Origin: Acidimicrobiia bacterium
GTDB lineage: Bacteria; Actinomycetota; Acidimicrobiia; Spongiisociales; UBA5794
Length of the DNA stretch: 64,000 nt
Direction: 5' to 3'
Assembly (NCBI GenBank): GCA_036396535.1
Contig: DASWKR010000035.1
Span: 128,944 to 192,943 of the forward strand
Shown here piece by piece: positions 3,538 to 47,670 of this stretch; the first letter of the stretch is position 1, and each line of letters begins with the position of its first letter. The notes beneath the pieces were generated by a model that worked only from the letters and a program-made list of their open reading frames with translations, was not told the origin of the DNA and made no database searches. The translations under genes were made by a program, and so were the position numbers.

Positions 3538-4755
3538 CTACAAGGCGCCGAGCGCCGCGACCACGCGATCGACCTCGCTCGGCGTGTTGTAGTGGGCGAG
3601 CCCGACCCGGACGAGACCCCCGCTGTCGAGAACGCCTAGGTGTCGCATCACCTCGAGGGCGTAGTAGTGGCCGTGCCACACGAAGATCCCCTGGCGGCCG
3701 AGGGCCCGCGCCACGTCTTGGGCGCTCCTCCCCTCGACCCCGATGGCGAACGTCGGTGCCCTCCCCTCCATCGTCGGTGCGCCGTACAGGCGAACGCGCC
3801 GCAATCCCGCCACCCCGTCGACGAACCGGTCACCGAGCGCCGTTTCGTGACCCCGTATGGCAGCCATCGCACCGACGAGGGCGGGTCGCCGCCGACCGGG
3901 CGGTCCGTGTGAGGCGAGGTAGTCGATCGCCGCGGTGACGCCGGCGAGGCTCTCGAAGCTCTGCGTTCCCGTCTCCCACTTGCCGGGCGGGTCGGAAGGG
4001 GCAGGCCGAATCCTGACGGCCGGCACGGAGGCGAGCAATGCCAGCTTCCCGTAGAGGATGCCCGTGTGGGGCCCGAAGAATTTGTACGCCGACGCCACCA
4101 AGAAGTCACAGTCGCTCGCCGCAACGTCGATCAGCCCATGCGGGGCGTGATGGACGGCATCCACGTACACGAGGGCACCAACCTCGTGGGCACGCTCGAC
4201 GACTCCTGCGACATCGACGATCGTGCCGATCGCATTGGACGCATGGGTCACGGCGACGAGCCGGGTGCGGTCGTCGAGCACGCTGTCGAACATGGCCGGC
4301 GTCAGTGACCCGTCGGAGGCATCGAAGTCGACGAAGCGGACCGTGGCACCTGCGTGCTCCGCTGCGATCAGCCACGGCGACACGTTGGCGTCGTGGTCGA
4401 GCCTCGTCACGACGATCTCGTCTCCGGGCCGCCAAGTGGCGGCGAGCGCCCTGCTAACCGACAGCGTGATGCTCGTCATGTTCTGGCCGAAGGCGATCTC
4501 GCTCGAAGACGCCGCGCCGAACAGATCGGCCGCAGCGGTTCGGGCCTCTTCGACCGCCGCCTCCGTCTCGGTGCTCGTCACGAACGGGCCTCCGAGGTTC
4601 GACCCCCCGCGCCGCATGAAGGCACTCATCGCCTCGATCACGGTCTCGACGACCTGGGTGCCTCCCGGGCCGTCGACGTAGACGGCTGGGACACCGTCCA
4701 CGAGACGCGCCAGAGCCGGGAATCGTGACCGAACCGCGGCGACGTCGAAGCCCAT
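3538..4755 (-). CDS. aminotransferase class V-fold PLP enzyme, cysteine desulfurase-like family
   Basis: 405 aa. SAYKFFGPHTGILYGK matches the PLP-lysine region of the cysteine desulfurase-like (NifS/CsdA-related) family, and the overall fold-type I pattern fits. Confidence 0.65.
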   Translation of the reverse strand: MGFDVAAVRSRFPALARLVDGVPAVYVDGPGGTQVVETVIEAMSAFMRRGGSNLGGPFVTSTETEAAVEEARTAAADLFGAASSSEIAFGQNMTSITLSVSRALAATWRPGDEIVVTRLDHDANVSPWLIAAEHAGATVRFVDFDASDGSLTPAMFDSVLDDRTRLVAVTHASNAIGTIVDVAGVVERAHEVGALVYVDAVHHAPHGLIDVAASDCDFLVASAYKFFGPHTGILYGKLALLASVPAVRIRPAPSDPPGKWETGTQSFESLAGVTAAIDYLASHGPPGRRRPALVGAMAAIRGHETALGDRFVDGVAGLRRVRLYGAPTMEGRAPTFAIGVEGRSAQDVARALGRQGIFVWHGHYYALEVMRHLGVLDSGGLVRVGLAHYNTPSEVDRVVAALGAL

Positions 4756-11247: not shown

Positions 11248-11336
11248 CTAAAGATCCTCCAAGATTTCTTCGACGCCTCTGCATGACGACCAGCCCATGG
11301 TCCGATGCGGCCACCACTCCCGCTTCATGCAACATT

Positions 11337-11352
11337 GTGAAAGGCGTCACAA
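11337..11352. promoter_or_regulatory. Crp/Fnr-type palindrome TGTGA-aaggcg-TCACA
   Basis: Exact match to the TGTGA-N6-TCACA consensus, in the divergent intergenic region between the sigma-factor gene (minus) and yyaL (plus). Overlaps one arm of a 12-bp inverted repeat CACAAAGCCCGG (11349-11360) / CCGGGCTTTGTG (11385-11396). Confidence 0.4.
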
Positions 11353-11465
11353 AGCCCGGTTCGGTCCCAATATCACACATTCCCCGGGCTTTGTGAACCC
11401 CTCATCTGCCGAAAACCCGACGAGAAAAGGGCCTGAGGTCGAACGATTGGCCCTTCGATCGACCT

Positions 11466-11478
11466 GGGTTGTCCACAG
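11466..11478. repeat. direct repeat GGGTTGTCCACAG, copy 1 (copy 2 at 11560-11572)
   Basis: Two identical 13-nt copies 94 nt apart, in the 5' region of yyaL. Confidence 0.35.
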
Positions 11479-11608
11479 GCTCGTCAACACAACGCCGCAG
11501 ACTGGGGATCTCTTCCGCCCCAGGCGTCCTGCTGCCCGCCGACCTGGGGGAACCATGGCGGGTTGTCCACAGTCCGTCGGCGAGGACGCCCATGGCTACG
11601 GTGGACAC

Positions 11609-13630
<2,022 letters not shown>

Positions 13631-13636
13631 TCGGTC

Positions 13637-14602
13637 GTGATCGACATCTCCACCGGCCAGTGCATCTATTGCGGCGCCGAGAGGCGCCGCGACGCCATGC
13701 GCTGCCCACACTGCGAACGAATGTGGCCTGACAGGACGGTCACGGCCATCCGGATCGACCTCGACGACGTCTCGGAGGCCGAACAGGTGCGCGCCGGGGC
13801 CGGGCCCGTGCCGCAGCAGCCGGCGCCGAAGCGGGCGGCCCGGATCTGGGTGCCCGTCGGAGTCGCGGTGGCGGCCCTCGGTGCGTATCTCGTCTTGTTC
13901 GGGCTGATCCTCGACGGCGGCCCTCCCGACGAGGACGCCGCACCGCAAACGACGCTGCCCTCCCAAGAGACCTCGCCGGCGACGGCGAGCCCGTCCGAGC
14001 CGTCGACGACGGCCGCGCCGACGACGGCGGCGCCGACGACGACCGTGCCTCCGACCACGACGGCGACCACGTTGGCACCCATCGAAGCCGTGGGCGACGC
14101 CATCCCTATCGATGAGCTCTCGCTGGGGGCATTCGCGCTCGGGCCCCTCGACATAGGCTCGCCGGCCCACGACGCCGTCGGAAGGCTCGTCGCGACGTTC
14201 GGTCAACCCGACGCCGTGATAGAGACTCTCGACGCCTCGGTCGGGCTCTGTGACGGTGTCGCGGGTCGGCTGGTCTCGTGGGGTGGACTCGGACTCGTGC
14301 TCGCCGGCGATGGCGAGGCGGAGGCATTCGCCGGCTATCGCTTGGAGCTCGACGCGGACGACGGGCCGACCAACGGGTTGCGAACCCTTTCCGGGCTGGG
14401 CCTCGGCGACACGTGGGAGCAGGTCGAGGCGATCTACCCGACCGCCACCGGGGTCGACATCGGCGGTGCGCCCGGTTTCATCGTGTCCCGCTCGAGCGAC
14501 GGCATCACCCTCATCTGGGGGAGCCTGGCTGAGTCCGGTTCGACCGCACTCGTGACGGGTATCCACTCACCGAGGCCGTGTGACGGCGGCCCGACGCCGT
14601 GA
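13637..14602 (+). CDS. membrane-anchored protein: N-terminal zinc ribbon, 1 TM, Thr/Pro-rich linker, conserved C-terminal extracytoplasmic domain (paralog A)
   Basis: C4 zinc ribbon (CIYCG...CPHCE), TM segment IWVPVGVAVAALGAYLVLFGLIL and a linker TTAAPTTAAPTTTVPPTTTATT. The C-terminal domain shares blocks with 16708..17589 (AVGRLVAtFGqPD; FAGYRleLdaddG; LsGLglGdtweqvEaiYp; LiWGslaesGstalVtGIhSPrpCD). Confidence 0.5.
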   Translation: MIDISTGQCIYCGAERRRDAMRCPHCERMWPDRTVTAIRIDLDDVSEAEQVRAGAGPVPQQPAPKRAARIWVPVGVAVAALGAYLVLFGLILDGGPPDEDAAPQTTLPSQETSPATASPSEPSTTAAPTTAAPTTTVPPTTTATTLAPIEAVGDAIPIDELSLGAFALGPLDIGSPAHDAVGRLVATFGQPDAVIETLDASVGLCDGVAGRLVSWGGLGLVLAGDGEAEAFAGYRLELDADDGPTNGLRTLSGLGLGDTWEQVEAIYPTATGVDIGGAPGFIVSRSSDGITLIWGSLAESGSTALVTGIHSPRPCDGGPTP

Positions 14603-27024: not shown

Positions 27025-27119
27025 TGGCGGAGGCGGACGGGAATCGAACCCGCCAGGGGGCTCTCACCCCCTCTACGGTTTTGAAGACCGCGGGACCCAC
27101 CAGGCATCCTGACGCCTCC
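27025..27119 (-). tRNA. selC: tRNA-Sec (selC), anticodon UCA, 95 nt with long variable arm
   Basis: Minus-strand sequence GGAGGCGTCAGGATGCCTGGTGGGTCCCGCGGT-CTTCAAA-ACCGTAGAGGGGGTGAGAGCCCCCTGGCGGGTTCGATTCCCGTCCGCCTCCGCCA. Features: 7/8-bp acceptor stem, anticodon loop CU-UCA-AA identical to E. coli selC, long extra arm, T-loop TTCGATT, discriminator G plus CCA. Confidence 0.75.
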
Positions 27120-27226
27120 GGGTGGGAGCGTACCCGTGAGATTCGCCCTGTTCGGCGAGCTACTGGTACACCAGCCACATCCGCTAAGTTGATGGCGGCA
27201 GGGACCAACGACTGTGCCAGGGATTT

Positions 27227-27550
27227 GTGATGGCCGAAACGAAACTGATGGTGTGGATCGACCAGGATCTCTGCACGGGCGATGGGATCTGTGAAGAGAT
27301 CGCGCCCGATGTGTTCGTCGGTCGGGATGACGGCCTCTGGGTCGTCAAGGAGGAGGCCTCCCACTTCGGCACGACCATCGTGTTCGACGGTGTCGATGGC
27401 GATGGACACGGGCCGGAGGGGGCCCGCGGGGTCGCCAGAGTCCCCGATTCGCTCATCGACGTGGTGGTGGAGGCAGCCGAGGAATGCCCCGGCGAGTGCA
27501 TCATGATCGAGCCGTACTCGGCCGAGATCGTCGCCGGCCGGGGCGCCTGA
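27227..27550 (+). CDS. single-cluster ferredoxin (3Fe-4S/4Fe-4S, Fer4_13/15-like) with a long insertion
   Basis: WIDQDLCTGDGICEEIAPDVF ... EAAEECPGECI (the CxxGxC...CP pattern of actinobacterial single-cluster ferredoxins). Confidence 0.6.
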   Translation: MMAETKLMVWIDQDLCTGDGICEEIAPDVFVGRDDGLWVVKEEASHFGTTIVFDGVDGDGHGPEGARGVARVPDSLIDVVVEAAEECPGECIMIEPYSAEIVAGRGA

Positions 27551-27599: not shown

Positions 27600-28034
27600 T
27601 CAGCCGGTGATGTAGCTCTCGAGGTCTTGGATCATCGCTTGCTGCCACTCGATGATCGCCCGCACGACGTCGCCGATGGAGACCAGACCGACGACACGGC
27701 GTTCCTCATCCACGACCGGGAGGTGGCGGATCCTCTTGTCGGTCATCAGGTTCATGCATTCGCCGAGCGTGCTCGTCGACGTGACCGTCACCACGTCCGC
27801 CGTCATGATCTCCGAGACCGCCGTCTGCTTCGATCCCCGGTCGAGGAGGATCACCTTGCGGGCGTAGTCTCTCTCGGAGATGATCCCTGCCAGCAGATCA
27901 CCGTCCGTCACGACGAGTGCGCCGACCGCCTTCTCCGCCATCAGCTCGAGCGCTCGATAGACCGTGGCGCCGGGCTCGACCGTCCACACGGCGGAGCCTT
28001 TCGTCTCGAGCAGATGCGCAACCGTGCCCTGCAC
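27600..28034 (-). CDS. CBS domain pair protein
   Basis: 144 aa with two CBS repeats (ALVVTDGDLLAGIISERD; HLPVVDEERRVVGLVSIGDVV). Confidence 0.7.
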   Translation of the reverse strand: MQGTVAHLLETKGSAVWTVEPGATVYRALELMAEKAVGALVVTDGDLLAGIISERDYARKVILLDRGSKQTAVSEIMTADVVTVTSTSTLGECMNLMTDKRIRHLPVVDEERRVVGLVSIGDVVRAIIEWQQAMIQDLESYITG

Positions 28035-28167
28035 CGTCCCTCCCTTCTCGGCCTTCCCGACCCAAACCTACCAATCGGACCCGGCCTAGTTCGCAGGATC
28101 GACCATCGGGGTGAGGTCTCAGCCCATCACCGTGTCTCGTCGACTGCCGCGTCCGAGCCGAAGCCGC

Positions 28168-37217: not shown

Positions 37218-37619
37218 TCACACCTGAGCGAACGGATCGTGATCTCCAATGTCGCCGCCGCAGAACTGGCAGGTCGTCCGGTGGGGCGGGACGGCGGCGC
37301 CACAGTGGCGGCACTCGGTCGCCGACCTCGTCACCCGGCCGTCCTCGTGGCCGTCGAGCATGTCGAGCTCGCCGATCTTCGCCTCGAGCTGTTCCGGGCT
37401 GAGGCCGCTCTCCTCGAGGAGCGCCCACATGGCCTGCACGACGAGCACGAGTCGGTCGATCCGGTCGTGCAGCGCCATGACCTTCGCCTCCGGCGTGCTC
37501 GGGGCGCTCATGGACGACGCCGCGGCGCGGTTGAGCGACTGGTCGCGGCTTCCCATCAGATATCCCCACATGAAGTTCACGGGTTGATTATCGGACATTC
37601 GCCCAGGCACTGGAGTCAA
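37218..37619 (-). CDS. hypothetical protein with C-terminal zinc ribbon
   Basis: CRHCG...CQFCGG at the C-terminus; no family recognised. Confidence 0.35.
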   Translation of the reverse strand: MTPVPGRMSDNQPVNFMWGYLMGSRDQSLNRAAASSMSAPSTPEAKVMALHDRIDRLVLVVQAMWALLEESGLSPEQLEAKIGELDMLDGHEDGRVTRSATECRHCGAAVPPHRTTCQFCGGDIGDHDPFAQV

Positions 37620-37701
37620 CGCCTGCCGTCCCTAGGGGACGGCAGGTGAAGGCCCGCCGTCCCTAGGGGACGGCAGGTCACGTCCCCCGTACTATCGATC
37701 C

Positions 37702-45084: not shown

Positions 45085-45999
45085 TCACTCCAGCAAGAAC
45101 GCCTTGATCTGCTTCACGTAGTCATCGGAGCGGGTCATGATCGATTCATGGCCCGCTCCGGTGAGTTCCACCACCCGGTCGCCTCCCACGAGCGAGGCGA
45201 GCTGGCGTTGCGCAGTCGGCGAGACGACGAAGTCGTCCGTGGGGACGATCACCATCGTGTCGACGCCGAGTGACTCGATCCAGAGGCGCGAGTCGAACAG
45301 CCAGGCGGCGCGGCCGATCTCGTAGTGGAGGGTCGGGTCGCGGCGCAACAGGGCGGCGTGCATCCAGCGCTCGTGCTCCGGAAGCAATGCTCCCGTGCGG
45401 GCCATGAGCCGCCGCGAGATGGCGGCGAACTCGTTGCGACTCACCCTCGCCAGCGCCCTGCCGACCCAGAAGGCGGCCCTTGCGAGAGGGCGTCTCCTGT
45501 ACACCGGCCAGGCGGCCGTGGCGCCGAGCACGAGCTTGGTGACCCTGCCCGGGTGGCGCCTCACGAGCTCCTGGGCCACCATTCCACCGAGCGAGTACCC
45601 GAACATCGCGAAGGTCTCGACGCCGATGGCGTCGAGCACGCCGGCGAGGTCGTCTGCCATCCTCTCGACCGTCAGCGGCCCCCTCACCCAGTCCGACTTC
45701 CCGTGGTCGCGATGGTCGGGAACGATGACCCTGAAGTCCTCGGCGAGCGGCTCGATCACCCTGTAGAACGTCATCTCACCGTCGAATCCCCACCCGTGGA
45801 CGAGCACGAGCGGTGGAGATCCGGGGTCGCCGGCCTGGCGGACGAACAGCTCGATGTCTCCGACGAAGACGCTCCTCCCCGGTACCCGGATCGGACGCTC
45901 TTGCGGACCGCGAAACCGCGGCTCGATCTCGGGGCCGAGCAGGCGCCAAGCCATCCACCCGAACCCGAGCCACCAGAGGATCCTGCGCGCAGTCGTCAT
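45085..45999 (-). CDS. alpha/beta hydrolase fold protein
   Basis: HGWGFDG and a nucleophile elbow GYSLGG, with a C-terminal His (AGHESIM). Confidence 0.75.
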
Positions 46000-46445
46000 C
46001 GTTGCCGTCCATCCAGCGGGTCGGTGGCGAACACGTGGTCCTCAACCGGGATGCCTCCGACGAGGTGCTCGACCACGATCCTCTCCATGACGTCGACGTC
46101 GACCGAGTGGTACCAGACGCCATCCGGGTAGACGACGGCGATCGGGCCTTGCTCGCAGAGGCGTAGGCAGTCGGCCTTGGTCCGCAGCACGCAGCCTCGC
46201 CCCGGCGGCGTCGGCGGCGGCGGTTCACCAACGTTCGTCCCGCGCCACGTCGGCGGCGGCGATGCGATGTCGAGCTCCTTGAGGCGGCGCTTCAGGTGAC
46301 TCCAGACCGCCGATGACTCCTCGTACGTCGAGCATCGCGGTGTCGTCTGCTCGGCGCACAGGAAGATGTGCCGCTCGATCGCGCCGATCGACAGGGCGGC
46401 TGCGATGGCGGCGAGCCGCTCGACGTCTGCATGCTCGTCACTCAT
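45996..46445 (-). CDS. thioredoxin-like [2Fe-2S] ferredoxin family protein
   Basis: [13 protein letters not shown] ... [43 protein letters not shown] matches the TRX-like Fd consensus (C-x4-C ... C-x3-C, GP.v.VYPdGvWY). ATGA-coupled to selD upstream and to the hydrolase downstream. Confidence 0.7.
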
Positions 46446-47497
46446 GTCACGGTGATCCGTCCCGCCGGACCGTCTGCGAAGTCGCGCCCCACGATCTCAC
46501 CGACGACGGCGCCGGTGACGTTCTCGTCGTGCAGCGCCTGCAGCAGGGCGCCACTGAGGGGGCGGTCGACGGCGATGAGCAGGCCCCCGCTCGTCTGGGC
46601 ATCGGCCAGCACGACCCGAAGCGCCTCCGCCACGCCCGGGGCGAACGTGGTGTACCGCGCCGTGGATGCGATGTTGCGATCGGTGCCCCCCGGCACTACG
46701 CCTTCTGCTGCGAGCTCGACGACGCCGTCGAGGACCGGGACGTCGGCAGCCACGACGACTGCGCTGACGCCGCTCGCCTTGACGATCTCGCCGAGGTGCC
46801 CGAGCAGACCGAATCCGGTGACGTCGGTGGCTGCTCTCACGCCGATCCTCCGCATCGCCCGGGCGGCGCCGTCGTTGAGCGTCGCCATCAGGTCGACCAC
46901 GGCGTCCCGCTGGCCGGGGAGCACCCGGTCGCGCTTGATGGCGGTGGTGATGATCCCCGTACCCAGGGCCTTGGTGAGCACCAGGACGTCGCCCACCTTG
47001 GCTGCGGCGTTCGTGACGACTTCGTCGGGATGCACCAGGCCGGTGACGGCCATGCCGTACTTCGGCTCGTCGTCGTCGATCGAGTGGCCGCCGAGAAGCG
47101 TGCAACTGGCTGTGGAGAGCACATCGACGCCTCCTCGCATCACTTCGCCCAGCATGTCGAGCGGCAGCTTGTCCCTCGGCCAGGCGACGATCTGGAGGGC
47201 GGTCAGGGGGGTTCCACCCATGGCGTAGACGTCGGAGAGCGCATTGGCCGCCGCGATCCGACCCCAGTCGTAGGGCTCGTCGACAACCGGCGTGAAGAAG
47301 TCGACCGTCTGCACGAGGGCGACGTCGTCGGTGAGCCGGTAGACACCCGCGTCGTCGCTACCACCGATCCCGACGATGAGGTCCGGGTGGCTGACGGGAC
47401 CCATGTTGTGCAAAGGGCGCAAGACTTGCGCCAACTCGTCAGGACCGAGCTTGCATGCTCAACCGGCCCCGTGCGAGTAAGCCGTCAACCGCTCCAC
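46442..47497 (-). CDS. selD: selenide, water dikinase (selenophosphate synthetase) SelD, selenocysteine-containing; Sec codon UGA at 47459-47461
   Basis: The track ORF (46442..47434) begins at a TTG just after an in-frame TGA. Reading through gives [29 protein letters not shown]..., matching the E. coli SelD N-terminus ([18 protein letters not shown]). GTG start at 47495-47497 with AAGGAGG upstream. The rest is canonical SelD (DDAGVY, AIR-synthase-related fold). Confidence 0.8.
47417..47433 (-). other. SECIS-like stem-loop (GGCGCA-AGUCU-UGCGCC) 25 nt downstream of the selD UGA
   Basis: 6-bp GC stem with a G/U-containing apical loop in mRNA sense, at a distance compatible with bacterial SECIS elements. 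Confidence 0.35.
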
Positions 47498-47670
47498 GGC
47501 CACCTCCTTCCGCGGCCGAGTGTATGCAGCACCCAGGCGCCGCAGGCTCGGGGCGCGCCGATACGGCGATCGGATTCGAGGGGGTGGTTGCGGCTGCGGA
47601 GGTGACCCAACTCGACGCAGTCCCGAGCGGTTCTCTAAGATCCTGCGACTCGGTATGCTCATTCCGAGTA

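Follow-up and report, generated by a model that had tools for sequence, protein, structure and literature searches.

Does the TGA triplet that interrupts the selD reading frame of an Acidimicrobiia-like actinobacterium end translation, or does it encode selenocysteine (Sec)? An earlier note on the window, the whole stretch of 64,000 nucleotides analysed here, had placed this TGA at 47459–47461, just upstream of a TTG (47434–47432) at which an ORF begins, and had read the frame through it to a GTG preceded by AAGGAGG. All of these elements lie where the note had put them, and comparison with related genes makes it very probable that selD here is a selenoprotein gene, with the UGA read as Sec by the standard bacterial insertion pathway.

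The gene is composed of the following parts.

46442–47497, minus strand: selD coding sequence (351 codons and the stop), selenide,water dikinase with Sec predicted at residue 13, assigned from TIGR00476, NF002098 and 3u0o.
47503–47509 (reads 47509–47503), minus strand: Shine–Dalgarno sequence AAGGAGG, read directly from the sequence, with a spacer of 5 nt to the GTG.
47495–47497, minus strand: start codon GTG, placed by the sequence, by SelD homology from residue 3 and by the starts of relatives.
47459–47461, minus strand: in-frame UGA, putative codon for Sec at residue 13, the counterpart of E. coli Cys17, placed by translation, alignment and the codons of relatives.

From the GTG, the frame passes through 11 sense codons to the TGA at 47461–47459 and continues for 338 further codons to the stop TGA at 46444–46442. 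The ORF is otherwise intact and high in GC3, and the TTG at 47434–47432, which the six-frame list takes as the start of a 330-amino-acid ORF, lies within this frame. In related selD loci the start falls 2–3 residues ahead of the conserved LT.YSHGAG. A scan for promoter and terminator sites around selD found none.

For profile and structure searches, Cys was substituted at the TGA position of the 351-residue product. The NCBIfam SelD equivalog TIGR00476 matches the resulting sequence at 399.8 bits (cutoff 125), with residues 3–311 placed on profile positions 1–307, and NF002098 matches it at 369.8 bits (cutoff 299). The best match among solved structures is E. coli SelD (3u0o, E=2e-78; residues 3–336 on 7–335). 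Also among the structure matches are PDB entries 2yye and 2zod, which we take to be Aquifex aeolicus SelD solved as Sec-to-Cys mutants. Recorded for the called selD product are the domains AIRS (PF00586) and AIRS_C (PF02769), and the product is, as predicted from family models, a selenophosphate synthetase. The alignment to SelD begins at profile position 1 and takes in the codons ahead of the TGA, so that the 12 upstream codons represent a genuine SelD N terminus, as the earlier note had argued from its comparison with E. coli. In the alignment to 3u0o, SHGAG-[TGA]-ACK pairs with SHGAGCGCK; the Gly-rich loop with its Lys is thus present, and the TGA falls on the catalytic Cys17.

The identity of this codon in other genomes bears directly on its meaning. 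A search in which each GTDB species was represented by a single genome provided 80 related selD loci, in which the homologous codon is TGA in 51 and TGC or TGT in 28, and is cut off by a contig end in the remaining one. The closest relatives are three Acidimicrobiia/Actinomycetota MAGs (L001, L002 and L009; 61–68% identity), all of which carry TGA within an identical G-U-A-C-K motif; in most Sec-form relatives the motif is G-U-A-[S/G/A]-K instead. Given that even the nearest relatives, at such identities, also have TGA, the codon is old and conserved, and its conservation together with alternation only with Cys is the signature of a Sec codon. This agrees with the proposal that the UGA stands in place of the first Cys of the loop, at a known Sec site. 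Six independent metagenome assemblies agree with 100% identity over the selD region, and the TGA is therefore not a sequencing error; the same identity over selD among same-species contigs leaves no variation by which to gauge selection on the N-terminal extension.

Downstream of the UGA, and inside the coding sequence, are two hairpins.

47416–47432, minus strand: apical SECIS hairpin GGCGCAA-GUC-UUGCGCC, putative SelB-binding element, from folding, covariation and the bSECIS model.
47435–47449, minus strand: a weaker hairpin, the first after the UGA (+10 to +24), CUCG-GUCCUGA-CGAG, from folding.

The apical hairpin is formed by 17 nt, GGCGCAAGUCUUGCGCC (47432–47416, +27 to +43 after the UGA), which fold into a 7-bp stem closed by a 3-nt GUC loop (−9.6 kcal/mol, z-score −3.3 against shuffles), with the stem beginning 26 nt and the loop 33 nt after the UGA. 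The GC-rich hairpin that had been noticed about 25 nt after the UGA is thus present, and is specific to Sec forms, but the 6-bp stem and 5-nt loop drawn for it are replaced in the best fold by 7 bp and 3 nt. The bSECIS consensus model of Zhang and Gladyshev, in the form quoted in a 2026 review (PMC13188914), specifies a loop of 3–9 nt, a stem of 4–16 bp, a G in the first two loop positions, 16–37 nt between UGA and loop, and a minimum free energy of −7.5 kcal/mol or lower. With its GUC loop of 3 nt, 7 bp, 33-nt spacing and −9.6 kcal/mol, the apical hairpin falls within every one of these limits, and the suggestion that it is a bacterial SECIS is further borne out by its covariation and its restriction to UGA forms.

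Pairing was compared between an ungapped alignment of 52 UGA-containing sequences and the 28 Cys-codon sequences. The apical helix is paired at 95.7% in the Sec forms, against 53.6% for the same columns in the Cys forms. Five of its seven pairs show compensatory double changes among the Sec forms (for example, GCGC/GCGC, GCUC/GAGC, GCCC/GGGC and GCAC/GUGU), and at fixed register the bSECIS limits are passed by 41 of the 52 Sec forms and by 0 of the 28 Cys forms. Overlapping the hairpin are the codons for Leu-Ala-Gln-Val-Leu-Arg (LAQVLR), a peptide that hardly varies among the Sec forms, in contrast to the Cys forms; at its last position, R, G, S and C replace one another as the pairing partner changes.

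The first hairpin may, on folding, be part of a lower or Y-shaped structure: a partial outer stem joins +1 to +6 with +44 to +49 and, with the first hairpin, gives the Y shape. Pairing in Sec and Cys forms is 68.7% and 72.6%, respectively, for the first hairpin, and 71.7% and 62.5% for the outer stem. Cys forms pair about as well in both elements, which were therefore rejected as Sec-specific and are not claimed here as a recoding signal; as a bSECIS, the first hairpin also lies outside the spacing that the model allows. The Rfam SECIS families (RF00031, RF01988–RF01991) gave no match at gathering threshold, nor at E<=10 on the selD 5′ region, and the sole match, to SECIS_3 (12.4 bits against a gathering score of 63), is on the opposite strand and was dismissed as meaningless. 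Rfam coverage of bacterial SECIS elements is poor (bioRxiv 10.64898/2026.04.03.716425).

Sec and Cys forms also occur side by side within a single phylum. In Eremiobacterota/Vulcanimicrobiota MAGs (L003–L048), close selD genes are a mixture of Sec (TGA) and Cys (TGC/TGT) forms, and the Cys-form genes have lost the LAQVLR-encoded hairpin. This distribution suggests repeated switching between Sec and Cys, followed by decay of the SECIS.

Decoding of the UGA as Sec would require a dedicated tRNA, and its gene is in the window.

27025–27119, minus strand: selC, the tRNA-Sec gene, with anticodon UCA, 95 nt, CCA encoded, from ARAGORN and Rfam RF01852.

The Rfam match is full length, at 72.7 bits against a gathering score of 47, and the gene lies 20.3 kb from the selD UGA, as the earlier figure of about 20 kb had indicated. 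NCBIfam and Pfam scans detected neither selA nor selB among about 50 large high-GC3 ORFs of the window, and identical metagenome contigs contain neither gene within 8.5 kb to the left or about 4 kb to the right of it. Next to selD in its three closest relatives, there is no selA, selB or selC. Genes of the sel set are often dispersed and unlinked. Since the window and about 12 kb of flanking sequence contain neither selA nor selB, the rest of the Sec machinery is assumed here, and we infer that both genes lie elsewhere in the genome. SelA and/or ybbB occur in 93% of prokaryotes with SelD (survey, PMC4561486), and Actinomarina, a genus of the Acidimicrobiia, has its sel genes scattered over the chromosome (bioRxiv 10.64898/2026.04.03.716425).

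Flanking selC are genes for a small 4Fe-4S single-cluster ferredoxin (PF13459) and a CBS-pair protein, at 27188–27550 (plus strand) and 27600–28067 (minus strand); no sel or formate dehydrogenase gene adjoins it. Among the 12 loci checked, selC is linked to selD only in a Firmicutes MAG (L057), in which tRNA-Sec is at 13336–13432, about 4.3 kb downstream of a Sec-form selD.

TGA ends 40 of the 44 confident ORFs in the window, selD itself included. The code is therefore standard and the recoding local, and global reassignment of UGA is excluded. A scan of the window for in-frame TGA codons with high-GC3 flanks revealed no other selenoprotein gene, only ordinary junctions between adjacent genes. 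Ending in TGA is a gene at 11252–13630 (plus strand) for a protein of about 700–790 amino acids with DUF255/Thioredox_DsbH (PF03190, 251.7 bits); directly after it, in the same frame, is a high-GC3 ORF at 13631–14602 (plus strand) with a CxxC-like QCIYCG motif, and two adjacent genes are the likeliest description of this pair.

In the proposed mechanism, translation would begin at GTG 47497. As the ribosome meets the UGA at 47461–47459, SelB with GTP and Sec-tRNA(Sec), the latter being the product of selC (27025–27119), would bind the apical hairpin with its G-U loop, and Sec would be inserted in place of termination. The residue would then be located in the N-terminal Gly-rich loop SHGAG-U-ACK, at the place of E. 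coli Cys17, as the catalytic residue of the Se-binding loop. The terminal UGA at 46444–46442, which is without such a hairpin, would act as a stop. Both the binding of SelB to the apical hairpin and the actual insertion of Sec are predicted from the sequence.

Three other readings of the TGA have to be weighed against Sec insertion. Were it a true stop, translation would start at TTG 47434, TTG 47422 or ATG 47404 and yield a SelD without the Gly-rich catalytic loop. Public gene calls of 320–326 amino acids and the 330-amino-acid TTG ORF are in keeping with such a start, but the product would miss the catalytic Cys/Sec and Lys, the 12 codons before the TGA align to SelD position 1 behind a strong Shine–Dalgarno sequence and a GTG, and 51 relatives keep both the TGA and the Sec-specific covarying hairpin, so that termination at this codon is highly improbable. 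We give equally little credence to a pseudogene produced by a recent nonsense mutation in a Cys-type selD. One base change does turn TGC or TGT into TGA, and Cys forms are common in relatives (28 of 80), but a codon shared with the closest relatives at only 61–68% identity is ancient, the reading frame is otherwise unbroken, has high GC3 and matches the SelD model over its full length, the hairpin absent from Cys forms is present here, and a tRNA-Sec is retained.

Read-through of the UGA without Sec is likewise very unlikely. Near-cognate Cys or Trp would be inserted with the help of the downstream structure, in a cell with incomplete Sec machinery; in its favour, about 76 kb of sequence contain no selA or selB, and structure-assisted read-through has a precedent for SPS genes in a proposal for insect SPS1-UGA (PMC4561486). 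Against it are the intact tRNA-Sec gene, a hairpin that fits the SelB-type bSECIS model with its G-U loop, the SelA and/or ybbB found in 93% of prokaryotes with SelD (PMC4561486), and the fact that sel genes are commonly unlinked.

Insertion of Sec remains the preferred reading, and an extension of it can be formulated, albeit one that we consider rather unlikely as a whole: that in this aerobic, high-GC, Acidimicrobiia-like lineage SelD is the only or main selenoprotein, and that its SECIS possibly belongs to a distinct, SelD-specific class too. A distinct class may be reflected in the compound Y-shaped element, in the unusually far SelB hairpin (33 nt) and in its position within the conserved LAQVLR codons. 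If the extension were true, the Sec machinery would be maintained mainly for the synthesis of the enzyme that supplies it, and with a distinct-class SECIS the RNA structure would dictate protein sequence, through the swap of R, G, S and C that preserves pairing.

Immediately downstream of selD is a 149-amino-acid ORF (45996–46445, minus strand), the ATG of which overlaps the selD stop (ATGA), and an alpha/beta hydrolase gene follows it, also with a 4-nt overlap; from this spacing, the three genes look like an operon. The 149-residue product has no Pfam match and a sub-threshold match to NF041612, a family of thioredoxin-like 2Fe-2S ferredoxins (40.8 bits against a cutoff of 150). Homologues with 62–72% identity are located 1–1.5 kb from selD in all three Acidimicrobiia relatives. 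Farther away, at 3538–4755 (minus strand), is a gene for a cysteine desulfurase-like class V aminotransferase (TIGR01976, 470.8 bits), with weaker matches to SufS, CsdA and SclA (selenocysteine lyase). Selenium can be mobilised for SelD by enzymes of this superfamily, but no link to selD was found for the present gene, which lies 43 kb away. Near the gpsA start, at 37615–37690, some same-species assemblies have, relative to the window, about 61 nt of extra duplicated sequence (L081, 18756–18892; L085), a duplication inferred from overlapping BLAST segments; TRF detected no tandem repeat in the window itself.

The consequences for annotation are practical. At least 20 contigs of the same species (99.9–100% nucleotide identity) are known from assemblies in ENA, JGI and Logan; the species occurs, for example, in ENA ERZ27256991, ERZ27256989 and ERZ27256803 and in JGI 3300037704, 3300037705, 3300037751 and 3300030606. 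In all of these contigs selD is called as 320 or 326 amino acids, starting after the UGA. The protein cluster of called selD contains only forms of 137–326 amino acids, some named 'selenide,water dikinase', and full-length SelD with X at the Sec position is absent from the public protein collection searched. The earlier prediction that any automated annotation would truncate the gene is correct for the metagenome callers, with their 320–326 amino acids, but 'any' is too strong, because the NCBI pipeline PGAP carries reference data for detecting known selenoproteins (bioRxiv 10.1101/2022.07.06.499078). The value of the result is a corrected annotation, 351 amino acids with U at residue 13 in place of calls that lack the catalytic loop, and this uncultured actinobacterium is marked as a likely Sec user. 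Current understanding is unchanged by a Sec-form selD here, since SelD is widespread as a selenoprotein (PMC13188914) and is already recognised as being frequently mis-annotated (PMC13326102).

The arrangement of selD with an in-frame UGA is well known in bacteria, and the present case is a gene-call correction rather than a discovery. Only one selenoprotein family is more widespread in prokaryotes than SelD (PMC13188914), and Sec is encoded in 19% of prokaryotic SelD genes of a reference set, 'always in the same position' (PMC4561486). Recognition that SelD can itself be a selenoprotein dates from the 1990s (Guimaraes et al. 1996, cited in bioRxiv 10.64898/2026.04.03.716425), and a Sec-form SelD has already been reported in Acidimicrobiia, in Actinomarina of the order Actinomarinales (bioRxiv 10.64898/2026.04.03.716425). 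By its published description, Actinomarina shares with the present organism the class, a Sec-SelD with an 'MRLT'-type N terminus, the presence of selC and dispersed sel genes; it is a different lineage with a small marine genome of about 1.1 Mbp, in contrast to the 68% GC found here.

E. coli SelD (3u0o) has the same AIRS and AIRS_C domains. In place of its catalytic Cys17, the present protein has a residue encoded by UGA, and no SECIS is present in the E. coli gene. Sec-containing SelD/SPS2 proteins include Haemophilus influenzae SelD, Aquifex aeolicus SelD and mammalian SEPHS2. Common to these and the present gene are the Sec position, the N-terminal Gly-rich loop with Lys and a SECIS inside the coding sequence just after the UGA; the difference is in the host, here an uncultured high-GC Acidimicrobiia-like actinobacterium. 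Unlike most Sec relatives, the loop G-U-A-C-K retains the second Cys, as in E. coli GCGCK, which is a mild peculiarity.

A second mild peculiarity is the Sec-specific hairpin with its long spacing. In E. coli fdhF the UGA-to-loop spacing is about 19 nt; the 33 nt observed here is much longer and near the far end of the 16–37 nt range. With the fdhF element and the bSECIS consensus the hairpin shares a GC-rich upper stem, a short apical loop that opens with G-U and a distance from the UGA inside the 16–37 nt range, and its apical sequence, GCAAGUCUUGC, resembles that of fdhF, GCAGGUCUGC. Distinct from that model are an additional hairpin and the partial outer stem between the UGA and the apical hairpin. 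For Acetomicrobium SelD, BSepDB (PMC13326102) has the predicted SECIS at the position of the first hairpin and not at that of the apical hairpin. The comparison of 80 loci provides a clean example of a SECIS hairpin that persists with covariation in Sec forms and that Cys forms have allowed to decay.
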